64,000 nt of DNA, taken from the UHGV virus genome UHGV-0084588. One strand, 5' to 3'. The DNA comes from a virus. Position numbers and translations under genes: made by a program. The notes under the pieces were generated by a model, which ran no database searches, was not told the origin of the DNA, and saw only the letters and a program-made list of their open reading frames with translations. Numbering within the stretch: position 1 is the first letter of the stretch; each line of letters begins with the position of its first letter. Of the stretch, positions 4,594 through 63,468 are shown in pieces.

Positions 4594-5448
4594 ATGATTG
4601 ACATTTATACCGATTACGCCGCCGTTCTTACCGTCAATCGTGCGGAAGAACGTGCTGCGCCTTTCCTGGACTTAGTAACGCTGTGCATGGATTACGGTTA
4701 CGATGTTGCGTTAAGCGATGTGTATTGGCAACCGTCGTCTGATCCTGCCGACGAAACCGTAAGACTGGAAGGGATTATTGTAAAATGCGCAGTGGCGTTA
4801 GGTAACCGTTTAGGCGTTGCTTTAAACCCACAAGAAGTTTTCCGTAAACCGAAAGAGACCGTACGTATTCTAGACGGCATTACGTCTAAATTCGAAGAGT
4901 TCGAAGACACCGATACGTTATACGGTCTTGTGATGTCTGGAGAAACGCCAGAGTTTATCCTGGAAAGTATCTGCCGTTACGTGTACGGTGACGATAATAT
5001 CCATTTTGAAGATTTGGTCATTCGTGTTTCACCCCGTGTAATGACAGTGATGCGTAATTATCTCTCAGCTATGGTTGTGGATGAGCAACTCGCTGTAGGT
5101 AACGATGTACGTCTGACGCGTATTGCAGAATACTTGCGTCTTTATCCGCAAAATCCCTCTGCGTTCGTATTCTTAAACTTACCTGAAGATCCTGATTTGA
5201 CGGTTGTCCAACAATCGTTAGTCTTTGACGTCGAGGATTACAGCGAAACAGAATTGCTCGAGATGTATACGGTAGGACTTTCGATTATCGATAACGATGA
5301 CTTCGATGACGCGTATGCTGATCTTTCGACGAACTTAGAGAAACTTAATAATGATGGGTTACAACCCATTACTGTTTTACAACCTGCTTTAAAAAGCCTA
5401 CGGGTGATTTATCGGGTTGAGGAGGCAGAGCACGATGACGAGGTTTGA
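4594..5448 (+). CDS. hypothetical protein
   Basis: 285-aa ORF from first ATG (track ORF starts at TTG 4582); follows terminator; co-directional array. Confidence 0.65.
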   Translation: MIDIYTDYAAVLTVNRAEERAAPFLDLVTLCMDYGYDVALSDVYWQPSSDPADETVRLEGIIVKCAVALGNRLGVALNPQEVFRKPKETVRILDGITSKFEEFEDTDTLYGLVMSGETPEFILESICRYVYGDDNIHFEDLVIRVSPRVMTVMRNYLSAMVVDEQLAVGNDVRLTRIAEYLRLYPQNPSAFVFLNLPEDPDLTVVQQSLVFDVEDYSETELLEMYTVGLSIIDNDDFDDAYADLSTNLEKLNNDGLQPITVLQPALKSLRVIYRVEEAEHDDEV

Positions 5449-6736
5449 GTTCTTAGTAGCGGCATGTAAAGCCGAAGCATGGCGTCGCTTGGTTTGGCGC
5501 ATTGCTATCTTTAACATGTCGGTGTTTCCAACTGGGCGTGAAGAACCCGAAGCGTTTGATATTACGTACATTGACGGCTTACCGCATTATTACGCTGTAG
5601 AAGACGGCAAGGGCAGTTGGGAACCGATTACCGACGGTGTAAAGGATCAGGAGCTGTTTATCCCTGAAGAACAGTTCGAACTCCGTCCCGACGACTATCC
5701 CGGTCTAGAAGGTCCTATCCCCACGACAGTAGGGCGATACGTTTTTAACTGGATTGTTATCTGGTATGCTTTTGGTACACGTTTACCTTATCTGGCGATT
5801 TCACAAAACCCGTTGGAATACCGCAAAGAGATGCATCGGCGCTGTTTAGACCATGAATCCGATGAGCCAGAAAACGAAGGTGCGATTCGTCCGAGTATGA
5901 TTGAACGCTTTGTAAGCGGCTTACACGAACTCGCTCCTCTCACGTCAGGTATTGCACCAACCGGTACGTTACGAAGCCTTACGGTGCATCCTGATGCGTA
6001 TAAAATTCGCGATGCGTTGCTGTTGAAGCATAAGGATGAATTAGACGATCCTGCCGTTATCGTTAAGATTGAAAAAGCGTTGGATGAGTTAGACAAAGAG
6101 TGGTTGTCAGGTGACCAATCTATTGAGTTTTATAACTCGCCGAAATCACGGATGCGTCGTCGTAAATTAATGTTGATGTACGGTATTGAGTCGTCTTTTC
6201 AGGAAGGGGGACATTACACGCTCATTCCGAACGCGTTAGTTGAAGTTGATAAGGCGGGGATGGAAAACCTGGTTGCGAAATTCAACTCTATCCGTGAAGG
6301 TTCATTCTCTCGTGGTGCAGAAACAGCGAAAGGGGGTGAGCAGGTACGTATTATCCAGATGATTTTCCAGAACCATCGAATCGTCCCTGGTGACTGTGGA
6401 ACGAAACTAACGTATCCGGTTGTGATTACCGAAGATAACGTAAAACGTTACGTTGGGATGAATGCGATGGTTAATGGTAAACTGACGCCACTGACTGAGG
6501 AATATTTAAAGCAGCAGTTAGGTAAGGTGGTGCGGTTACGCCGACCCATCTTATGTCAGTATGGCCACATCGACACCTGCACAGCGTGTTCGTCAGCGAA
6601 TAAAGGGGAAGAACCTCGTGCAATCGCTGCGGATATATCCTCGGCGTTCTCTAACGTTATGTCCGTGGCAATGGCCGCGATGCACGGTAAAGAGACTGTG
6701 GTACACGAATTTAATCCATCGATCCACATTACGTAA
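5435..6736 (+). CDS. hypothetical protein
   Basis: ATG at 5435 preceded by GAGGAGG SD; overlaps upstream stop by 14 nt; 434 aa. Confidence 0.7.
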   Translation: MTRFEFLVAACKAEAWRRLVWRIAIFNMSVFPTGREEPEAFDITYIDGLPHYYAVEDGKGSWEPITDGVKDQELFIPEEQFELRPDDYPGLEGPIPTTVGRYVFNWIVIWYAFGTRLPYLAISQNPLEYRKEMHRRCLDHESDEPENEGAIRPSMIERFVSGLHELAPLTSGIAPTGTLRSLTVHPDAYKIRDALLLKHKDELDDPAVIVKIEKALDELDKEWLSGDQSIEFYNSPKSRMRRRKLMLMYGIESSFQEGGHYTLIPNALVEVDKAGMENLVAKFNSIREGSFSRGAETAKGGEQVRIIQMIFQNHRIVPGDCGTKLTYPVVITEDNVKRYVGMNAMVNGKLTPLTEEYLKQQLGKVVRLRRPILCQYGHIDTCTACSSANKGEEPRAIAADISSAFSNVMSVAMAAMHGKETVVHEFNPSIHIT

Positions 6737-7308: not shown

Positions 7309-9088
7309 ACTTTGCGGCTTTGATGTATTCAAAAGGATCGGTAATTGCTTCTCCTTGTCGACGTAGAAAGGCTTCTAAGACGTCGTTTTTATCGGGTAAT
7401 AGGAAGAAATCTGTCGCGATCTCCATTGCGTTAACGCGACCTGCAGTAAGGTTAATACCGACGCGACGCCGTACTTCTTCAGGAACACCGTGAATGCTTA
7501 ATAACTCGATTAACGTCGTCTCACGAGACTGGTTCATCATGTTTGTTGCGGATGGGTATGCCTGGGTTAAGTCAGCATCTGCGGTTTGACCACGGAAAGC
7601 CGTGTAGAAATCATCAACCTCCTTGATGATGTTTCGTAGGCCATTCTCTGCGTTCATACACGCGGTCAATGTAACAATCCAACCGTCTGTCCCAATGACT
7701 TCATTGTCAAAATCGTTACGCATCGCGCTACCCACACAGCCGATAACCAGACCTTGTTCGTAGAGGTAGTACGTGTACGCAATACAGATTCGCTTCGGCA
7801 GTGAAGGGAAGATATCGTACATCGAATAACCTGCCAACACTGAAATAGCAGAAGACAGATCGTTCGTCTTTTTATCAAGCAGAACAATCATCAGGTTATC
7901 GAAGATGTTATAAACGCAGTATTCTAACGGGAAATCTTTCTGTGCCTTTAAGTGCCATTCCAATTTTTCCTCGTAGGGTAAATCCGGTAAGTCTAACTTG
8001 TTTAAACCCAACTCGGTTTCCAGTATCGCGTTAAGTTTGTAAGAAGGACGTTGCCCTTCGTGTACACGCAATGAACGGAATAGACACATCGCATCTACAC
8101 AGTAGAATGACGCCGTACAATAAAGAATGTGCCACTGCTGTGAAGGTGCTTTTGTTAGTGACTTTGATTCCGTTTTCTTCGATGCTTCGTCTTTCTTAAA
8201 GTAGACACGACGGTACTGTTTCGGCACGTCTGGATGACAGAAGACGTCTTCCGGTGGAATGCCCGCTGCTTCTAAAGCTTCTAACATACGTGAAATATCG
8301 AACTCGTGGTTCCATGCGACAAGTAAGTCAGGGAGACGAGGGTGAATTTCCTCAAACATCCGTTGAATACAACAGCCCGAATTGAGACATTCGTAAACGA
8401 AGATTTTGTAACCGTCGATAACGTTTTTGTATTTAACGATAGGATTGTCGTTCTCGTCTTTTCCACGAAAAGCGATTTTAGAAAGCAATTCCTGAGCACG
8501 ATTGACGAGTCGCGCTTCAAAGTTTTCGCGTCCGCAGCGTGTGACGTAGTCTTTCGTAGCAAAGAAATGAATCTCGTCGTCTAAAACAAAACTCATAATC
8601 CAGGGGTCTCGAGATTTGTCTTCTTCTCGAGTTTCCACGTCGTATACACAGATGCGGTTGGGTGAAACAGCATTAGGCCATTTACGCATGTACTTTTCTT
8701 TAATCCAGCTCGTAATGGGCAAATCGGCCCAGTAAACAAACGGTGAAGTACAAACTTGGCGGAGTGGTTTCTTTTTGTCGGGAAAACGAATCCCCAAACC
8801 CATCTGTATGGTTGAGGACATCATTACATCCGTTGTTAAATATTCCTGACACTTACTACGTTCCTCGTATTCCTTCTTTTCCTTGTGGTTACGATGTTGT
8901 GGTAAAGTAATGTAGATGGGACGTTTCAGATTTTCACGCATGACAATTCGTGGGATATATCTGCCATCTTTAGTATGGACGACCTCCTTTATGAGCACGA
9001 AGTCGTTTTCTTTCTGCTGATCGGTTGCGTAAGAAACAAACTTGCACTCCTTGGCAATAACGTCTTCCGGTGCGTAATAGTTATTCAT
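7307..9088 (-). CDS. DEDDy 3-5 exonuclease, family-B DNA polymerase exonuclease-domain-like
   Basis: Ordered motifs VYDVETRE (Exo I, DxE), AWNHEFD (Exo II, NxxFD), YNIFD (Exo III, YxxxD); no YGDTDS polymerase motif seen; start set at internal ATG 9088 to avoid overlap with divergent gene. Confidence 0.55.
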   Translation of the reverse strand: MNNYYAPEDVIAKECKFVSYATDQQKENDFVLIKEVVHTKDGRYIPRIVMRENLKRPIYITLPQHRNHKEKKEYEERSKCQEYLTTDVMMSSTIQMGLGIRFPDKKKPLRQVCTSPFVYWADLPITSWIKEKYMRKWPNAVSPNRICVYDVETREEDKSRDPWIMSFVLDDEIHFFATKDYVTRCGRENFEARLVNRAQELLSKIAFRGKDENDNPIVKYKNVIDGYKIFVYECLNSGCCIQRMFEEIHPRLPDLLVAWNHEFDISRMLEALEAAGIPPEDVFCHPDVPKQYRRVYFKKDEASKKTESKSLTKAPSQQWHILYCTASFYCVDAMCLFRSLRVHEGQRPSYKLNAILETELGLNKLDLPDLPYEEKLEWHLKAQKDFPLEYCVYNIFDNLMIVLLDKKTNDLSSAISVLAGYSMYDIFPSLPKRICIAYTYYLYEQGLVIGCVGSAMRNDFDNEVIGTDGWIVTLTACMNAENGLRNIIKEVDDFYTAFRGQTADADLTQAYPSATNMMNQSRETTLIELLSIHGVPEEVRRRVGINLTAGRVNAMEIATDFFLLPDKNDVLEAFLRRQGEAITDPFEYIKAAK

Positions 9089-22258: not shown

Positions 22259-22276
22259 TCTCTGATTGTTTAGTAA

Positions 22277-22322
22277 GAGAACCACCCTGTAATGGGGTGG
22301 TTCTCTCTTTTCTTTTTTTTTT
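22277..22322 (+). terminator. strong rho-independent terminator
   Basis: 11-bp stem gagaaccaccc/gggtggttctc followed by tcttttcttttttttttt. Confidence 0.8.
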
Positions 22323-22339
22323 CGATTAAAAACAATTTC

Positions 22340-22378
22340 AGATATATATTACCTAGGTGAGATTACACAGTAATCTCT
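22340..22378 (+). promoter_or_regulatory. phage early-promoter-like element with downstream hairpin, copy 1
   Basis: AGATATATattacctagGTGAGA; contains TATATTAC; stem gagattac/gtaatctc; 35 nt upstream of CDS 22413; follows a terminator. Confidence 0.55.
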
Positions 22379-22412
22379 TTACGACTTGTTTATTACGTTT
22401 AGGAGAAATATC

Positions 22413-23054
22413 ATGAGCCGCATTAATTTAACTGATTTCGTTGATGGTGTTGTGTCTATGGAGAAAGGCACCGTTACGATGGTGGCACCGAATAGTAAAG
22501 TTGTTATTTTAAATCCGGTAGAACTGATTTCTATTTCTACCTGGTTGCGTTTACTTTCTGATAAGAAACCTAAAGACCAAGCGAAGGGCGGGTTGTTAGT
22601 AGGTCCACGCGAGTTTGTTTTCAAAGACATAACCCAAGATAAACTGGACAGTATTGCTAAAGAACTGAACGGCAAGCATAAAACCCGCGACATCGGGAGT
22701 ACCGAACATGACGGTGTAACGTACCATGCATTTCTTGATAGTCACGTAGCATTGCGTGAAAAAGAAAATGGGGTGTACGAATCAGTTTGTTTCTTTCATT
22801 TAATCGCACCAACAGAAAACGATGCTGTGTATGGCACTGTTGAAAAATCGGCGGAAGCTGTTATGGAAACGGTGTCAGAACTTGTAGAAGGGATGAAAAG
22901 AATCCCACGTGTGTTGAAGGTTACTGATGGTGCTATCGATTGTTTTAAATTATTGCCCTTAATAGCTAGTAAAGAATACGAAGTTGAGAACACGTTTGGG
23001 CTATTCGAAATTAGTCTTTCGGAAGCAGTTGTTACTTTCTTCGAAGCTTTATAA
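22413..23054 (+). CDS. hypothetical protein (putative early gene)
   Basis: ATG 22413 with AGGAG SD; preceded by conserved promoter-like element 22340-22378; terminator after stop. Confidence 0.7.
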   Translation: MSRINLTDFVDGVVSMEKGTVTMVAPNSKVVILNPVELISISTWLRLLSDKKPKDQAKGGLLVGPREFVFKDITQDKLDSIAKELNGKHKTRDIGSTEHDGVTYHAFLDSHVALREKENGVYESVCFFHLIAPTENDAVYGTVEKSAEAVMETVSELVEGMKRIPRVLKVTDGAIDCFKLLPLIASKEYEVENTFGLFEISLSEAVVTFFEAL

Positions 23055-23058
23055 TCAG

Positions 23059-23087
23059 AAAGCCCTCCGTAGAGGGCTTTATTTTTT
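23059..23087 (+). terminator. rho-independent terminator
   Basis: Stem aaagccctc/gagggcttt then attttttc. Confidence 0.75.
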
Positions 23088-30427: not shown

Positions 30428-30433
30428 AAACTT

Positions 30434-30470
30434 CCCGTTACCTCTGTGGGTAACGGGAATACCTTTTATT
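30434..30470 (+). terminator. terminator-like hairpin (weak T-run)
   Basis: Stem cccgttacc/ggtaacggg then aataccttttattt. Confidence 0.45.
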
Positions 30471-30593
30471 TATCGCTAAACGCCACGCAGAAGTCATTTC
30501 ACCATTAAGGCGACTAATTACCCTTTAAAAAGAAAATCGCGTTAGAATGCGTTTTAGAGCGTTCTAGAGGGTATATGGATTCAAAAAGATTTC

Positions 30594-30632
30594 AGATATA
30601 TATTACCTAGGTGAGAGTTTACGTAATACTCA
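30594..30632 (+). promoter_or_regulatory. phage early-promoter-like element, copy 2
   Basis: Identical 23-nt core to copy 1, followed by imperfect hairpin; upstream of small lipoprotein gene. Confidence 0.55.
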
Positions 30633-30662
30633 TTTATCGAATACCTAATTAGGAGTTATATC

Positions 30663-30806
30663 ATGATTTCTGTAAAACACAAAAAAGCTATCTTCGCTGT
30701 TGTTATCGCTGTTGTTCTGGGTTGCCTGTACCTGGACATCGACAAAGGCTACGACACTTGCATCGACAACGGTAATTCCGTTGCACAGTGCACTGGTCGT
30801 GGTTAA
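30663..30806 (+). CDS. small putative lipoprotein (47 aa), absent from the ORF track
   Basis: Hand translation MISVKHKKAIFAVVIAVVLGCLYLDIDKGYDTCIDNGNSVAQCTGRG; AGGAG SD; basic n-region, hydrophobic core, lipobox-like VLGC; optimised codons; flanked by promoter element and terminator. Confidence 0.6.
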   Translation: MISVKHKKAIFAVVIAVVLGCLYLDIDKGYDTCIDNGNSVAQCTGRG

Positions 30807-30811
30807 TGTAT

Positions 30812-30844
30812 AAGGCACCTTCGGGTGCCCTTAATTTTTTTATT
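30812..30844 (+). terminator. rho-independent terminator
   Basis: ggcacc-ttcg-ggtgcc then cttaatttttttatt; right after small lipoprotein ORF. Confidence 0.75.
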
Positions 30845-30860
30845 AATTGGAGCATAAAAG

Positions 30861-31676
30861 ATGATTACTATTAAAGATTATTTTCCGCGTGGGCTGAGCA
30901 ATGAAAACTTCGTTCCAACTGAAGACATTGCCATCGTTGCAGAGTCTAACGATAAGTCTTTTAAACTCTACTTGAGTACAGCAGCAGGAAAATCTACTCT
31001 TATCCTTCGTGAACCTGAAGTGATAAGCATCTGCTCGTTTGGGGGCGGTGTAGAAGGAACGATTAACTGGTTGAAATCCAGAATGCATCGTTTACTTATC
31101 GTGAATACCGATCCTACGATTCGATTACAGCAATTGAAATCGTTGAATGAAGTTATCGTCGGATTATTGGAACACGAAACGTTCGGTAGTGCTGAGATTG
31201 CGGAAGCGATTAAATCTGTAGAACTGATCGAGTGGAGTGATATCGAATACGAACGTGCTGCGTTATTCGCAATGTACGGTGACGATAATCCCGTTGTGTT
31301 TGCACAAACGTTGGATAATGTTACCGTGACGGCGCGCGTATTGTTCGGCTTGCAACGTGTTGAGTTTGAACTGAAACACGTTTATGTAAGTAATACTCCA
31401 GAGATGGTGGAAACGTTGACTCGTGCGTTCGCTTACCCGTTAGACGGAGAATGGGAACAGCAGATTAATGAAGCGTTAGGCGCAATGCTGTTCTTAGCAG
31501 GCACACTAAGGAAAGAAGAGAAATTAGAAGGTCGTGTCTACCCAGAATACGATTTTGTTTGTGAAGAATGTGGAGCACAGTATCAAATACGTGTTCCTTT
31601 AACCGGCCTGACAATCCCGAAAGCCAACGTGGAATGTAAAGAATGTGGCCATGTTCAATACGTAGCGACTAAATAA
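30861..31676 (+). CDS. hypothetical protein with C-terminal zinc-ribbon (CxxC..CxxC)
   Basis: 271-aa ORF; C-terminus FVCEECGAQ...ECKECGH; terminator follows. Confidence 0.7.
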   Translation: MITIKDYFPRGLSNENFVPTEDIAIVAESNDKSFKLYLSTAAGKSTLILREPEVISICSFGGGVEGTINWLKSRMHRLLIVNTDPTIRLQQLKSLNEVIVGLLEHETFGSAEIAEAIKSVELIEWSDIEYERAALFAMYGDDNPVVFAQTLDNVTVTARVLFGLQRVEFELKHVYVSNTPEMVETLTRAFAYPLDGEWEQQINEALGAMLFLAGTLRKEEKLEGRVYPEYDFVCEECGAQYQIRVPLTGLTIPKANVECKECGHVQYVATK

Positions 31677-37026: not shown

Positions 37027-37149
37027 ATTATTTTTTGGATAGATATTATTAAAGGGAGACAGTCAGTTGGTTTTAAAGGAGTATGTATGGAAAAAATACA
37101 GTTTAAACTAAAGATATGTATCATCATTAAAATTTAGCTTGGGTCACCC

Positions 37150-38170: not shown

Positions 38171-39946
38171 GTGTTTAAAGATGCAATCAAAAAGCTTAAA
38201 GAGAGTGGTAAAATAGTACCCTTTAACCGTGCGATTGCGGAAGGAGTCGGTTATACGCAAGCCAAAGATGGTATTCATGATCGCGTTCATCGAATCTTGA
38301 AACGTGAGCTAGATTACCATCCTGTAGAGAACCCTCGTGTTCCTGAAGGCTTGGCCGTGTTGGGTGTTCGTTTAATGTCGCCGTTCGAAACTTTTATCTA
38401 TAAGTTGTCTCGCTCAGAGAGCAGCAGAATGGATAAGCGTCGCGGGGTGATGTCTATCGCGAATACCGATGCGTATATGGTCATGTCGTCGTTCCGTATT
38501 CCTGGAGACTCAAGACCAATCTCAAGACCGATTAACTTGCCATTCATTCGTCGTGGTGGGTTGATGAACTATTACGGGACAACGTACCACGTTGCACCTG
38601 TTATTCATCAGCCGGGTATCTGTCGTGAGCATGGCGGGGTGTTTGTTAATTTTGACTTTAAACGTAAAGCGTCATTAAAATTCTGTAAGCATCCAGTACG
38701 TATTTTAGTGAATGGGAAGAAAGAAGAGTTGTTCTTGCCCGGAACAAACAATTTGTTTAAAGCCAAAAACGCCACACATCCTGACACGGACGAAAAACCG
38801 TTAATGTACTGGTTATTCGGACGTTATGGATTTAAGGAAGCCATCAAACGTTATACTGGCGTGGATGTGGAGATATATCCTGCATTCAAAGTACCTGAAA
38901 TCGATCTCGATAAAAAAGTAGTAATCGGTTCAGGTGAGCCTAAACATAATCGGTCGATTATGTACGTAGTGACGGTTCCTGCAGAGGCTTTACCGAATCT
39001 CGATAAAGCAGGATGGGATCAAAACGAGCACTTATTACTCGTGGCGATTTCTGCATTCTTTAAAGCAGCGCACTATTATTGCGGAAAGCAAGCGATTAAA
39101 AACGGCAACGTTGTTCCTTTACCGCCGTTGTTTACCGCTATTAACGAACTTGCAATGGAGGACGATGTTCTAAACCTGAATTCCTCCGCAATTTGGCGGG
39201 AGATTTTGGGGAGAAGTATTGTTGGACTTAAACCGTCTGATATTGAACTGGCACACAGCATGACGAAACACTATACGGAGTGTGAACGCTACGTTAACTC
39301 AACATTCCGTGGCGAGTTAATGATGTCAGATCCCGATATCCCAGACGATATGGATATGTTTGATTTCTTCTGGTACGCGACGAAGTTGATGGTGAGAACG
39401 CGCCTCACGAAACAAGGCGATATTCCGTCAATGTATGGAAAACGTCTGACCGTAACAGATTACCTGTTATTAGGTGAGCGTGGCTTTACACCTACCATTG
39501 CTGCGATTCGTTTTCACTTGGGACAAACGGAGAATAGAACACCGGAGTCTTGTGCGAACATGATACGCAGTGCGTTGAATAAAGACATTGTAACCAGCCT
39601 GGTATTGCGCAACATTACCGGTAACGGCGGTGTAAGTTATTTCAACGCTTCTACAGAGTCTATGGTGCTGGGGGTTTCAACCCATGCTATCAGCCAGACA
39701 GAAACAGAATCAAAACGTAGCAGCAAGGGCGGTAAGACGGTTAACCTTAACGACCGGACAAAACATGCCTCTGCATCTCATCTGGAATGTGGTAACGTGT
39801 ATTACATTCCGAAATCATCACCGTTCAAATCGGGCATTCTCAATCCGTATATGAAGACGAATACCCAACTGGTGATGGTGCGTAATCCAAAACTCAACGA
39901 CTTGATCCAAGCAACTGAAGAAGACATTGCGAAGATTGGCCGTTAA
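38171..39946 (+). CDS. hypothetical protein (591 aa)
   Basis: Long ORF 10 nt after upstream stop. Confidence 0.7.
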   Translation: MFKDAIKKLKESGKIVPFNRAIAEGVGYTQAKDGIHDRVHRILKRELDYHPVENPRVPEGLAVLGVRLMSPFETFIYKLSRSESSRMDKRRGVMSIANTDAYMVMSSFRIPGDSRPISRPINLPFIRRGGLMNYYGTTYHVAPVIHQPGICREHGGVFVNFDFKRKASLKFCKHPVRILVNGKKEELFLPGTNNLFKAKNATHPDTDEKPLMYWLFGRYGFKEAIKRYTGVDVEIYPAFKVPEIDLDKKVVIGSGEPKHNRSIMYVVTVPAEALPNLDKAGWDQNEHLLLVAISAFFKAAHYYCGKQAIKNGNVVPLPPLFTAINELAMEDDVLNLNSSAIWREILGRSIVGLKPSDIELAHSMTKHYTECERYVNSTFRGELMMSDPDIPDDMDMFDFFWYATKLMVRTRLTKQGDIPSMYGKRLTVTDYLLLGERGFTPTIAAIRFHLGQTENRTPESCANMIRSALNKDIVTSLVLRNITGNGGVSYFNASTESMVLGVSTHAISQTETESKRSSKGGKTVNLNDRTKHASASHLECGNVYYIPKSSPFKSGILNPYMKTNTQLVMVRNPKLNDLIQATEEDIAKIGR

Positions 39947-50677: not shown

Positions 50678-51153
50678 TGCAACAGCTAGATATCACCGAA
50701 GACAAAATCTCCGCTAAATTTCCTGAATTACGTGAATATGTGAAAGATTTAAATTCGATTCGAGAAACGCCGGTTAGAATCACTTTGGCCGTTGAAGACG
50801 ATATTACACATGGGGTTGCAATCTGGGAACCGGGGAACCTTATTTATCTGGTGGTGGCCGAGGGTTCTCGTCGCAGCGGTGTAGGTTCCTTTTTACTGAA
50901 ATACGTTCAACTCAATTCAGATCGTCAAATGGTGATGTGTCGTGTTCATCCTTCAAACATCGACGGGCTGTGTTTCTTTTCCAAAAAAGGCTTCCAAATA
51001 GACCGATGGTTTATTGCCAGTGACTCCCGTCGGTATTTTCGTATGACGAACAGTAACGTTGATTCGTCATACGCCCCGCCGGAAGAAGGATATTTGGTGG
51101 ATTTTATTGAAAACACCCCCATCTTTCTCTCTGTTGCGGATAAGATTTATTAG
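50677..51153 (+). CDS. GNAT-family N-acetyltransferase-like protein
   Basis: Acetyl-CoA-site-like RRSGVGSFLL and downstream FFSKKGFQ; 158 aa. Confidence 0.6.
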   Translation: MQQLDITEDKISAKFPELREYVKDLNSIRETPVRITLAVEDDITHGVAIWEPGNLIYLVVAEGSRRSGVGSFLLKYVQLNSDRQMVMCRVHPSNIDGLCFFSKKGFQIDRWFIASDSRRYFRMTNSNVDSSYAPPEEGYLVDFIENTPIFLSVADKIY

Positions 51154-56570: not shown

Positions 56571-56612
56571 ATTATTACAACTGTTACTCTCATTGTGAGA
56601 GGTTTCACTTAA
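56571..56612 (+). promoter_or_regulatory. degenerate promoter-like element (variant)
   Basis: ATTATTAC then palindrome CTCTCAttgTGAGAG and shared TCACTTAAC; upstream of kinase gene; spacing differs from copies 1-3. Confidence 0.3.
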
Positions 56613-57260: not shown

Positions 57261-57266
57261 CCGCTT

Positions 57267-57306
57267 AGGTACCACCCAACGGTGGTGCCTATATTTTATT
57301 TTTTCT
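57267..57306 (+). terminator. rho-independent terminator
   Basis: Stem aggtaccacc/ggtggtgcct then atattttattttttc; immediately precedes promoter-like element copy 3. Confidence 0.7.
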
Positions 57307-57307
57307 C

Positions 57308-57346
57308 AGATATATATTACTTAAGTGAGAGTTACAATTAACTCTT
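57308..57346 (+). promoter_or_regulatory. phage early-promoter-like element, copy 3
   Basis: AGATATATattacttaaGTGAGA; stem agagtt/aactct; upstream of HTH regulator gene; follows a terminator. Confidence 0.55.
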
Positions 57347-57379: not shown

Positions 57380-57739
57380 ATGGCTTACAATCACAATTCC
57401 ATCGTTCTGACAAAACGTAAATTCGGTCTTCACTTGTCTTACGTAATTCGTCATTTGACCACGAAAGATATTACTCAGCGTGAGCTTGCCCAGCTTGCGA
57501 AAGTTTCACAACCCGTTATCTCATCTATTAAGAACGATCACTCAGAACGTTTAAGCTTACCGATTATGATGAAAGTTGCTGATGCGATTCGTTTGAAGTA
57601 TCAGATTAGTTTTAATTCCGTTAAGGGTCGTTGCTCAGTAACTGTCCACGTAGAGTCCGCATTGGACTACGTTGCAAACACCTCCATTAAACGCACCACG
57701 AAGAATGTGCGTTTTATCACTAACACCGCAGCACACTAA
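57380..57739 (+). CDS. helix-turn-helix transcriptional regulator (XRE-like)
   Basis: HTH signature ITQRELAQLAKVSQPVISSIKND; preceded by conserved promoter-like element. Confidence 0.65.
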   Translation: MAYNHNSIVLTKRKFGLHLSYVIRHLTTKDITQRELAQLAKVSQPVISSIKNDHSERLSLPIMMKVADAIRLKYQISFNSVKGRCSVTVHVESALDYVANTSIKRTTKNVRFITNTAAH

Positions 57740-57760
57740 TCAACCTGAAGGAGTATTATC

Positions 57761-58432
57761 ATGCCACCGAAAATTGGTAAAACCGTAATTGAAGAAACTG
57801 TAAAGAACGAGACTAAAGCCAACGAAGTTCAACATGCTGCGAAGGTTGAACTTTTACCCTGCGTTAATGAAATACTCGGGGTGAAATTCTTAACTTTTAG
57901 CCCGTATACTGACCTGGTTTTCGATTTTTATCAAGACCAGCCTTTCAACCTATTCACACTTGTCTGCACTTATAATGGCGATGTTCTGGCAGTTGCTCCT
58001 GGTCTTAATAGAGACAAGTTACTTACAGGTACGGTTATTACTGAAATTCTTCTGCGGTTAATGCATAAGTTTGAAGGACCTGAACTTGACAAAATTGCTG
58101 TTAAGTTAGCTGACTTACTAATCAATGCTGTCACCTGGTTGAGTTTTAACCCTTCTATCTATTTCCATTTCAATACAAATATTCTTCACGCCGTAACAGA
58201 CGATGGTAAAAAGTATCGCATCTTAATTAAGGGTGGGGTGCAACAACCTTTGTTCTCTAGACAAAACTGCCATATTAAGTTTTCGCCTGACTTGGTAGAA
58301 GTTTACGGCCAGCGAGTAGCGGCTGGCCACTACGATACCCATCTCAGATTTTTCAATTACCTGTATGAAAAATTAGGGAAAGCTGGCTTGACACCCAATC
58401 TTGCTTTCACAAGTTCTGCCCCTTTTGCGTGA
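57761..58432 (+). CDS. hypothetical protein
   Basis: 223-aa ORF with AAGGAG SD; terminator follows. Confidence 0.65.
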   Translation: MPPKIGKTVIEETVKNETKANEVQHAAKVELLPCVNEILGVKFLTFSPYTDLVFDFYQDQPFNLFTLVCTYNGDVLAVAPGLNRDKLLTGTVITEILLRLMHKFEGPELDKIAVKLADLLINAVTWLSFNPSIYFHFNTNILHAVTDDGKKYRILIKGGVQQPLFSRQNCHIKFSPDLVEVYGQRVAAGHYDTHLRFFNYLYEKLGKAGLTPNLAFTSSAPFA

Positions 58433-58444
58433 TGTTTAATAATT

Positions 58445-58478
58445 GGGGAACTTCGGTTCCCCTTTCTTTTTTGTTTTT
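58445..58478 (+). terminator. rho-independent terminator (repeat family B)
   Basis: ggggaa-cttcg-gttcccc then tttcttttttgttttt. Confidence 0.75.
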
Positions 58479-61876: not shown

Positions 61877-61880
61877 ACCT

Positions 61881-61917
61881 TCCCTCTCTCCGTTTGGAGA
61901 GAGGGAGTATTTATTTT
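61881..61917 (+). terminator. rho-independent terminator (repeat family C)
   Basis: ccctctctcc-gttt-ggagagaggg then agtatttattttt. Confidence 0.7.
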
Positions 61918-62292: not shown

Positions 62293-62578
62293 TACCGACG
62301 AAACGAATTTACAGCGCTTGCAACGGGCACTAACTGCACCGCTAGGTGGCGAGATTCACGAACGTTGGGTAATTGCGAGGGTGGTAGAAATTGACTATTC
62401 TCAGGATCAGTTGCTGTTAAATAACTGCTCGTCGAACGTGCCTTTCACGTTACCGCGTGCTGTATTCCGCCTTACCCCCAACGTTGATGAAATACTGACT
62501 ATTGACAGGAAACTTCTATCGATAGAACTTCAGCATTTCCCGCTACCTGGTAAGTCGGTTAATATTGCGCTGTGTTAA
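62270..62578 (+). CDS. hypothetical protein
   Basis: 103-aa ORF from ATG 62270 overlapping upstream end; upstream part of track ORF treated as non-coding. Confidence 0.45.
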   Translation: MSSQNHTNTDETNLQRLQRALTAPLGGEIHERWVIARVVEIDYSQDQLLLNNCSSNVPFTLPRAVFRLTPNVDEILTIDRKLLSIELQHFPLPGKSVNIALC

Positions 62579-62597
62579 TGACAGTCTAAAAAACTTA

Positions 62598-62628
62598 AGA
62601 TATATTTCATCTATGTGAGAATTCTCAC
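62598..62628 (+). promoter_or_regulatory. promoter-like element, copy 4 (variant)
   Basis: AGATATATttcatctatGTGAGA with same N9 spacing; GTGAGAATTCTCAC perfect palindrome; upstream of CDS 62652. Confidence 0.45.
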
Positions 62629-62651: not shown

Positions 62652-62921
62652 ATGGCTAAGATTTACATTGTTGAGAAACGTGCGGGTAATGTTCTTTCTT
62701 ATTACGAAGAAGGTAAGCCTGAGAAAATCAAAACACTCAAACTCGACGGGTACGATGTGAAGAGTTTACGTAAGGGTGTGAAGATTACCTTTAAAGGTCT
62801 GGTTCGCGCAGGTAACCTACACATTGTTAAGACTGACGGTACGATGGCTGCGTTAGCACCTGTCAGTGCTGCGAAAACGACAGCAGGTCGTGGCTGCTAC
62901 GGTAGCAGTCGTAAGATTTAA
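62652..62921 (+). CDS. hypothetical protein (putative early gene)
   Basis: 89 aa; preceded by promoter-like element 62598-62628; terminator follows. Confidence 0.6.
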   Translation: MAKIYIVEKRAGNVLSYYEEGKPEKIKTLKLDGYDVKSLRKGVKITFKGLVRAGNLHIVKTDGTMAALAPVSAAKTTAGRGCYGSSRKI

Positions 62922-62928
62922 GCAGTGC

Positions 62929-62967
62929 CCCTCTCTCCGTTTGGAGAGAGGGTACTTTTATTTTTCT
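62929..62967 (+). terminator. rho-independent terminator (repeat family C)
   Basis: Identical hairpin ccctctctcc-gttt-ggagagaggg then tacttttatttttc. Confidence 0.7.
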
Positions 62968-62979
62968 TCGAGGTGTGTG

Positions 62980-63468
62980 ATGACAACGGTATTAGTAACA
63001 AAGGATTACATTTTAGCTGACCGACTTGTGGATTATGGTGGCACGGTTAAAGAATTGCCCAAACTGCACAAACACAAAAACAAGTTTGTTTTCTACACGG
63101 GAGAACGTGTACTGGACACCGAATTTTGGAAAATATCGATTACCGCTGCTATAGAAGAATATTTAGACGAGGATAAACGTCAGAAAGTTGAGCCCTTGCT
63201 TGCAGATCTTTTCGAAAAAGAGCGAATATTCGATCAAATCGTCATTTTTACGGCTAGAGAAACACATTGGTTGACATTAGTGGCAGATAAGTTTAAAACG
63301 TTTGTAATAAATAAAAATGCGGTTTGGGCAACGGGTTCTGGTGGAGGATTTGCGCGGGCTGCTTGGGCAACTGGAATATCAGAAAAGAAAATTATGCCAT
63401 TGGTAGGTTCTATTGATCCGTCTAGCTCGACCACTTACGACTTGTTTTACAGGAAGGGTTTACGATGA
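62980..63468 (+). CDS. hypothetical protein
   Basis: ATG 62980 after terminator; track ORF start 62866 lies inside terminator hairpin. Confidence 0.6.
   Translation: MTTVLVTKDYILADRLVDYGGTVKELPKLHKHKNKFVFYTGERVLDTEFWKISITAAIEEYLDEDKRQKVEPLLADLFEKERIFDQIVIFTARETHWLTLVADKFKTFVINKNAVWATGSGGGFARAAWATGISEKKIMPLVGSIDPSSSTTYDLFYRKGLR

Follow-up and report, generated by a model that had tools for sequence, protein, structure and literature searches.

Which polymerase reads the short elements that recur ahead of scattered genes in the viral genome UHGV-0084588, and what the inverted repeats following them are, are questions raised by a 64,000-nt stretch of this genome, which is called the window below. 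A preliminary description of the stretch had proposed a five-member, plus-strand family made up of a promoter-like motif and a hairpin downstream of it. The description is largely confirmed: of the five sites flagged, four hold up and appear to be early promoters of the phiKZ type that belong to the phage itself. The promoter is of an expected and known kind, and the new part, as far as our searches show, is a covarying 5′ stem-loop coupled to it.

The pattern AGATATAT-N9-GTGAGA was matched exactly at 22340-22362, 30594-30616, 57308-57330 and 62598-62620, all on the plus strand (copies 1 to 4 in this order), and to this extent the proposed family stands; its fifth site, at 56571-56612, failed every model. 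When up to two mismatches were allowed, five matches were obtained against 0.32 expected, a number reached in none of 100 shuffles, the fifth match being located at 51143 with two mismatches. Copies 1-3 have 21 of the 23 core bases in common, and TATATTAC is exact in all three, as had been described, within a longer and nearly identical stretch (…ATTTC-AGATATATATTACyTArGTGAGA). Copy 4 (AGATATATTTCATCTATGTGAGA) is divergent, with three mismatches to the 21-base consensus and a position weight matrix (PWM) score of 30.6 bits versus 49-64 bits for the other copies. Scanning of the window with a covariance model of promoter and hairpin, filters off, returned copies 3, 1 and 2 at E-values between 2e-10 and 5e-6, and copy 4 as a weak match (E = 0.19); copy 4 is an exact match to the initially described pattern despite these low model scores. 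The four promoter copies are as follows.

22322..22362 (+): promoter copy 1, composed of A-rich tract, TTTC, AGATA, TATATTAC, CTAGGT and GAGA; predicted +1 at G22359; PWM 64.2 bits, covariance model 49.8 bits (E 1e-7); extended core the same as in phiKZ early sites
30576..30616 (+): promoter copy 2; predicted +1 at G30613; PWM 61.6 bits, covariance model E 5e-6
57290..57330 (+): promoter copy 3; predicted +1 at G57327; covariance model 63.8 bits (E 2e-10)
62598..62620 (+): promoter copy 4, divergent, AGATA-TATTTCAT-CTATGT-GAGA; predicted +1 at G62617

The phiKZ core was taken directly from the phiKZ genome sequence, in the first 50 kb of which TATATTAC occurs seven times, always on the plus strand and in intergenic DNA, with TTTaAGATn before and N6-G(A/C) after each site. 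One of these sites is located upstream of gene 54, the promoter of which, P54E, is an early promoter in experimental use (PMC4666361), and the match of TATATTAC to the core of phiKZ early promoters that the preliminary description had proposed was accordingly borne out. In phage Goslar (NC_048170 172963-172998, reverse strand), AAAAAAATTTCAGGGT-TATATTAC-CTAGGT-GA with the same upstream TTTCAG precedes the nuclear shell (chimallin) gene, which is the orthologue of phiKZ gene 54. Promoters of the phiKZ type are read by an injected, multisubunit virion RNA polymerase (RNAP) (PMC7598289, PMC8244752, PMC10914365; for 201phi2-1, PMC11512511), and they contain two elements, one AT-rich, ~10 nt long and with its centre near -10, the other T-rich and upstream of -19 (PMC7598289, PMC8244752, PMC11512511), with conservation near -20 and -30 that fits TTTC-AGATA and the A-rich tract (PMC8244752, PMC11512511). 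The sites agree with the published spacings when the G that follows TATATTAC at seven bases, i.e. the G of GAGA, is taken as +1; this predicted start rests on the shared G(A/C) at position 7 after the core and on the point where pairing begins. According to PMC7598289, every jumbo phage that encodes RNAPs has a motif of this type that is open to bioinformatic detection, and the promoter is therefore of the kind to be expected.

The promoter-like nature of the sites was upheld by an AT-rich core, a T-rich element and multiple co-oriented intergenic copies. The elements have in common with phiKZ-type early promoters the arrangement TTTnAGATn-TATATTAC-N6-G(A/C), the A-rich tract near -30, the intergenic location, the co-orientation with the gene behind, and the restriction to RNAP-encoding jumbo phages. 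They differ from the phiKZ promoters in that the initially transcribed GTGAGA is invariant and followed by a covarying 5′ stem-loop, and in that the sites are fewer per genome and head scattered, insulated units of one or two genes inside structural gene clusters.

Gene content points to the same group of phages. The gene order of the window is syntenic with that of the Salmonella jumbo phage SPN3US from gp42 to gp112, and at the DNA level the likeness to Salmonella and Erwinia jumbo phages is weak (~73-76% identity over 13%). The preliminary description had held that the virion polymerase is not encoded in the window, which is contradicted by the following gene.

5435..6736 (+): virion RNA polymerase beta'M subunit gene, homologue of SPN3US gp42 (74% identity over 433 amino acids)

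SPN3US gp42 is the beta'M subunit of the virion RNAP (PMC5105663), and the window gene would supply one subunit of the polymerase proposed to act at the promoters. In addition, the open reading frame (ORF) at 38375-39946 is a homologue of PHIKZ123, a non-virion RNAP subunit and a component of the solved phiKZ non-virion polymerase. The source is a giant, SPN3US-like phage, which, on these two homologues, belongs to the phiKZ-type, RNAP-encoding group. Other products of the window include internal head proteins, the major head protein, a DNA polymerase and a helicase; Pfam gave little information for most of the large ORFs.

The motif is restricted to such phages. The exact 21-base pattern was identified in 31 contig stretches of IMG/VR, all but three of them from contigs of 107-246 kb, with SPN3US, phiEaH2, ChrisDB and Caitlin among the carriers, and the aligned copies gave the consensus GATTAAAAAnnATTTC-AGATATATATTACyTAGGTGAGA. 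By BLAST, the 43-nt core was located at 284 places, distributed over 67 of the 50,697 phage records; these 67 are without exception jumbo phages of 229-251 kb with Salmonella, Erwinia, Escherichia (including Goslar), Vibrio and Proteus as hosts, and the places were almost always in unannotated intergenic DNA. Over 33 training copies, TTTC-AGATA and GATTAAAAA were conserved. The complete SPN3US genome contains ~7 strong PWM sites, all on the plus strand, of which those upstream of gp55, gp66 and gp101 are in positions orthologous to window copies 1, 2 and 3, and in the spacer orthologous to copy 4 the related AGATAGATGTTAT-N6-GA was found. The pattern [GT]ATATTA[CT]-N6-G[AC] had 19 matches in that genome, again only on the plus strand. 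A loosened pattern, ATATATTACNNNNGTGAG, was discarded in viral contigs, as it was swamped by chance matches in unrelated ones. Literature searches for SPN3US/Seoulvirus promoters or Chimalliviridae hairpins returned no description of the element, and the full-text search for TATATTAC gave nothing relevant.

Starting in GTGAGA, each of the four copies contains an inverted repeat.

22359..22377 (+): leader hairpin of copy 1, GAGAUUAC / ACA / GUAAUCUC; -8.2 kcal/mol, z -4.19; none of 200 shuffles folds as well
30611..30633 (+): leader hairpin of copy 2, imperfect and weak; -2.7 kcal/mol, z -0.35 from +1; (((((.(((.....))).))))) at -3.5 kcal/mol when folded from GUGAGA
57327..57346 (+): leader hairpin of copy 3, GAGAGUUA / CAAU / UAACUCUU; -6.5 kcal/mol, z -1.65
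62615..62628 (+): short hairpin of copy 4, GUGAG / AAUU / CUCAC, with two of five pairs upstream of the predicted +1; -5.9 kcal/mol, z -1.61

Within the window alone the hairpin is only moderately supported, as only copy 1 is strong individually, and the strong support comes from the relatives. The arms initially given for copies 1 and 3 were correct, those of copy 4 are in fact GTGAG/CTCAC with an AATT loop, and the hairpin of copy 2 is weak.

Almost all of 40 distinct leaders folded with a stem starting in GUGAGA, and the family mean of the minimum free energy was -6.9 kcal/mol versus -2.55 kcal/mol with nucleotides 7-30 shuffled (z = -15). Native leaders reached -7.1 kcal/mol versus -4.4 kcal/mol for chimeras in which the 5′ and 3′ halves had been taken from copies with different arms, and positions 7-10 formed four to six different pair types with their partners. 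Two approaches were used, a covariance model with a seed of six copies that have the same geometry and an alignment-free analysis anchored on the 5′ arm. In the covariance-model alignment of 42 distinct copies, 92.1% of the cells paired and double changes were present in five of the eight pairs (47 cells), these pair counts being inflated, since the alignment was fitted to the structure. The covariation of the native leaders was not reached in any of 500 shuffles, and slid controls gave at most 0.053 versus 0.292. Compensatory changes were found even inside GTGAGA (GAGC with GCU twice, GAUA with UAUC, GACU with AGU). A MAFFT alignment of 38 leaders passed to RNAalifold was ungapped and produced no consensus structure, because the loop lengths differ.

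The pairs included 39 G-U pairs versus two A-C mismatches, with 21 of the G-U pairs at one position and therefore not independent events, and the sense strand was more stable than the antisense strand (-6.9 versus -5.2 kcal/mol). The excess of G-U over A-C and the greater stability of the sense strand speak for a structure formed by the transcript rather than a symmetric site in the DNA, in agreement, together with the covariation, with the original proposal of an RNA stem-loop rather than an operator with fixed half-sites. The stem has a median length of 7 bp, and the loops are 3-11 nt long with no conserved sequence. Pairing was near-universal from the predicted +1 onwards (35 of 40 leaders there, versus 15-21 of 40 at the two bases preceding it). 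The 8 nt after the stem contain 2.6 T on average, whereas at least five of eight would be expected of an intrinsic terminator; the stems are AU-rich, and those of the window were not reported by the terminator scan. Between +1 and the start codon there are 50 nt (median), with the stem well upstream of the Shine-Dalgarno (SD) sequence. With so few T residues after the stem and a leader of this length, the element does not resemble a terminator, nor is it in a position to block the ribosome-binding site.

The hairpin is specific to the SPN3US-like clade. The phiKZ leaders had no general hairpin (mean -2.3 versus -1.3 kcal/mol shuffled, two of seven anchored at +1), nor did the leaders of Goslar and Vibrio phage pVa-21. 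Rfam 15 gave no match at gathering score in the whole window, and a covarying 5′ stem-loop coupled to the promoter seems undescribed in the literature searched.

Two further features of the leaders were observed in the relatives. In many leaders of the Erwinia and Salmonella relatives, the SD sequence is immediately preceded by a box, (C)GACYAT(C/T)A..AAGGAR, that is kept between paralogous sites and is weaker in the window (22383-22400); the box could enhance translation or belong to a leader cassette that was duplicated. At SPN3US 165687-165762, a canonical promoter and hairpin are followed within ~50 nt by a GC-rich terminator (GGCTACCTTCGGGTAGCC and a T-run), which suggests a small non-coding RNA of ~50-60 nt transcribed from an early promoter.

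Taken as a mechanism, to which we give a probability of about 60%, the sites would be virion-polymerase early promoters of a nucleus-forming, SPN3US-like phage, with transcription starting at the G of GAGA and the transcript opening in a 5′ stem-loop that is probably stabilising. A multisubunit RNAP, carried in the virion and injected with the DNA, would probably read a recognition element of ~35 bp, in which the A-rich tract is near -30, TTTC-AGATA at ~-24 to -15, and TATATTAC at -14 to -7. From the predicted start, seven bases after TATATTAC (22359, 30613, 57327, 62617), the first 18-25 nt of the RNA would fold into a stem of ~7 bp, at the base of which the invariant GAGA is paired with UCUY and the top of which is freely variable. 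A stem at the start of the RNA would leave the 5′ end base-paired, and the preferred role of the stem is that it may shield the first phage mRNAs from 5′-end-dependent decay (RppH, the 5′ sensor of RNase E), 5′-terminal stem-loops being established mRNA stabilisers in E. coli (PMC3997798). Protection in cis would be sensible, since these mRNAs would be made before any phage protein exists, and each promoter would drive a unit of one or two genes insulated by terminators. By tblastn in the phage collection, homologues of Dip (gp37), the RNase E inhibitor of phiKZ, were found only in Pseudomonas phiKZ-like phages, one record labelling the match 'dip protein', and none in SPN3US/Erwinia-type phages; this confinement is weak, circumstantial support for protection in cis. 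The motif, its phylogenetic restriction, its gene-proximal and co-oriented placement and the covariation of the hairpin with its sense-strand asymmetry are observed; the polymerase, the start, the early timing and the stabilising role are inferred.

Several points weigh against this reading. No transcript data were found for any SPN3US-like phage, and start, timing and the expected resistance to rifampicin are predictions. There are ~7 hairpin-class sites per 240-kb genome versus ~30 early promoters in phiKZ, and as of 2017 no virion RNAP of this type had been purified (PMC5312081). The stems are AU-rich and modest, with a mean of -5.9 kcal/mol from +1 and with copy 2 barely stable, and the inflation of the pair counts applies here as well. 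In many copies, the 3-4 nt ahead of the predicted +1, to about -4, could pair as well, so the start is uncertain by a few bases and could lie slightly earlier.

A second promoter-like class is also to be considered. In SPN3US, AGATA-GATATTATCT-N-GA, also written AGATA-GATATTAT(CT)-N-G(A/C), is present on the plus strand only and near genes, including upstream of the RNAP beta gene gp34 (sites at 7395, 15619, 15712, 23815, 28974, 72491, 72689, 92545 and 191607). This class is generally without a hairpin (-3.1 versus -2.5 kcal/mol shuffled), and it is represented in the window by one site.

37037..37059 (+): second-class site, GGATA-GATATTAT-TAAAGG-GAGA, no hairpin; orthologous to SPN3US 72486

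The hairpin-bearing sites could accordingly form a subclass of their own in timing or regulation, e.g. immediate-early or middle, or one for a modified or a non-virion polymerase, rather than the early class as such; the general early class would then be the hairpin-less AGATA-GATATTATCT. Such a division would suit the two distinct motif classes of SPN3US, the location of the hairpin-less one ahead of gp34, which must be expressed early, and the low number of hairpin-class sites, but we regard it as unlikely, since it is the hairpin class that has the exact phiKZ early core TATATTAC with TTTnAGAT, and since the Goslar shell gene, orthologue of the early phiKZ gene 54, uses TATATTAC-CTAGGT-GA. 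Moreover, AGATA-nATATTAy-N6-GA is common to both classes, so that one polymerase could read both. Transcription by the host is less probable still: as sigma-70 promoters, the sites would have TATATT as their -10 element, the A-rich tract as an UP-like element, and flanks conserved incidentally. TATATT matches the -10 consensus at five of six bases at a sensible distance from GTGAGA, and copy 4, alone among the copies, fits the sigma-70 pattern ATGACA-17-TATATT at 10 of 12 positions (62578-62606) and may be readable by the host polymerase. However, copies 1-3 were not called in the sigma-70 scan of the window because they have no -35 element, AGATA, TAC and GTGAGA are invariant over 40 copies though irrelevant to sigma-70, the motif is confined to RNAP-encoding jumbo phages, and the same core is used in phiKZ, the transcription of which is independent of the host RNAP (PMC4666361); these points render the host reading quite improbable.

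With regard to the inverted repeat, action as DNA is the most improbable of the explanations weighed here, whether as the operator of a regulator (e.g. the helix-turn-helix protein encoded behind copy 3), as a downstream promoter element, or as a cruciform sensed by the polymerase. The conserved base of the repeat, GAGA/TCTY, would be accounted for, as would the palindrome of one subfamily that runs upstream of the predicted start (TTAAGTGAG/CTCACTTAA) and the pairing potential to -4, but the upper arms differ in at least 14 ways with the pairing kept, the loop length is as variable as given above, and neither the asymmetry of G-T over A-C nor the higher stability of the sense strand would be expected of a symmetric DNA site. 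If the hairpin acts as RNA, it could also be a promoter-proximal pause, attenuator or escape element that works on the polymerase and not on stability, which we consider improbable: UUU(U)A directly follows the 3′ arm in many copies, and premature termination in 5′ untranslated regions is frequent in phiKZ (PMC10914365), yet the scarcity of T after the AU-rich stems is unlike the genuine terminators of the window, which are GC-rich with long T-runs. A further and doubtful proposal, somewhat more plausible than a pause, is that the GAGA-based stem-loop does more than stabilise passively: it would mark one class of the earliest transcripts with a dedicated tag, bound by a phage or virion protein, or be needed by the virion polymerase for promoter escape. 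If the tag were real, it could serve export from the early infection vesicle, selective translation, or protection from host defences that target RNA, and recognition would depend on the conserved GAGA/UCUY pairs at the base and on the strict association with only one of the two promoter classes. Two further ideas, an SD-like (AGGUGA) 5′ stabiliser in the leader and an anti-SD switch formed by the UCUCUU arm, are speculative.

The stabilising role preferred here has its closest parallel in the 5′-terminal stem-loops of E. coli, which likewise have a short stem at or near the (here predicted) 5′ end, free stem sequence and an unconserved loop, and are located upstream of the ribosome-binding site. 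The leader hairpin of T7 gene 10 is one stabilising 5′ stem-loop. Those of ompA and papA are others (Emory, Bouvet and Belasco, as presented in PMC3997798). In contrast to the E. coli stabilisers, the present hairpin is tied to one promoter class, with ~7 sites per genome in at least 60 phages, and its 5′ end and stabilising effect are predicted; with +1 at the G of GAGA, a base that pairs in 35 of 40 copies, the stem would start within ~0-2 nt of the 5′ end, but this start is only a prediction, and the pairing potential continues to -4. The early promoter and stem-loop (PeSL) cassettes of T4-like phages (PMC2839356, PMC4122927) are similar in being repeated modules of ~60-100 bp that flank small, fast-evolving, non-essential genes, and the gene of copy 1, which is without an SPN3US homologue at a conserved cassette position, is a trait of this kind. 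The PeSL promoter is, however, of the sigma-70 type and its stem-loop is a terminator, whereas the promoter here is of the phage RNAP type and the stem-loop is downstream of the predicted start and not terminator-like. The hairpin promoters of the N4 virion RNAP (PMC4496689) resemble the present sites, as read here, in two respects: the polymerase enters from the virion, and the early promoter has an inverted repeat. The N4 hairpin forms upstream of the start by extrusion of the DNA and is specifically recognised, with a conserved 3-nt loop and a stem of 5-7 bp, whereas the repeat here is downstream of the conserved core and predicted start, its loops are variable and G-U pairs are tolerated; the polymerases are also unrelated, that of N4 being single-subunit and the one expected here multisubunit.

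The genes and terminators adjoining the four copies are as follows.

22276..22306 (+): strong intrinsic terminator closing the internal-head-protein operon, 14-bp stem and T-run, 34 nt upstream of copy 1
22413..23054 (+): gene predicted to be driven by copy 1, 213 amino acids (aa), no family match; terminator 23059-23080 at its end
30663..30806 (+): gene predicted to be driven by copy 2, 47 aa, phrog_8574, SPN3US gp66 homologue; followed by hairpin 30814-30829
57380..58432 (+): two-gene unit predicted to be driven by copy 3; terminator 58445-58462 at its end
62652..62921 (+): gene predicted to be driven by copy 4, 89 aa, phrog_12339, SPN3US gp112 homologue; terminator 62929-62952 at its end

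The unit behind copy 3 consists of a helix-turn-helix DNA-binding protein (57380-57739, SPN3US gp101 homologue) and an ORF at 57761-58432. The sites do head separate transcription units, as had been supposed, in that the units are short and terminator-bounded, and the genes behind the promoters are small and fast-evolving. Of the three copies said to be directly behind strong terminators, the statement applies to copy 1 and to copy 3, which lies 17 nt behind the terminator 57266-57291; for copy 2 the nearest upstream terminator (30432-30459) is ~135 nt away, and for copy 4 no upstream terminator was found in the terminator scan of the window. The 213-aa gene behind copy 1 had no tblastn homologue in SPN3US, though the position of the promoter and cassette is conserved there.

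It is one of the genes beside the cassettes that have no SPN3US homologue by tblastn (22413-23054, 30861-31676, 57761-58432 and 62980-63468), the neighbouring genes being 64-74% identical; the cassette sites look like hot spots of gene content, reminiscent of PeSL-mediated shuffling in T4-like phages. The terminators 61880-61907 and 62929-62952, ~1 kb apart, have the same stem sequence, CCCTCTCTCCGTTTGGAGAGAGGG, which makes the terminator itself a repeated module.

The fifth flagged site, 56571-56612, was rejected as a member of the family. It has more than six mismatches in the register of the preliminary description and no covariance-model match at E ≤ 10 with the filters off, and it has only GTGAGA..CACTTAAC in common with the other sites. 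Its GTGAGAG pairs with CTCTCA upstream (hairpin 56587-56601) and not downstream. When taken as a decayed promoter (ATTATTAC-N6-TA plus hairpin 56587-56601), it was below the threshold of every model, and the orthologous SPN3US spacer contains no canonical motif, only TATATTGT. The CTCTCA/TGAGAG hairpin itself, with a 3-nt loop, has a terminator on one side and the thymidylate kinase gene on the other and follows the ATTATTAC octamer at a distance of 8 nt, and this element may be a decayed promoter or one of a different class, outside the flagged family.

How the injected virion polymerase of nucleus-forming jumbo phages transcribes is poorly understood, and early promoters have been mapped only in phages of Pseudomonas and Bacillus. 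The present analysis provides a precise and testable promoter model for the enterobacterial SPN3US/Erwinia clade, and the core common to phiKZ and Goslar argues that the specificity of the virion polymerase is conserved across hosts. The cassette of terminator, promoter, 5′ hairpin and leader could be used as a compact module for expression when these phages are engineered, and the 5′ stem-loop, tied as it is to one promoter subclass, offers a concrete way into the survival or handling of the first phage mRNAs.

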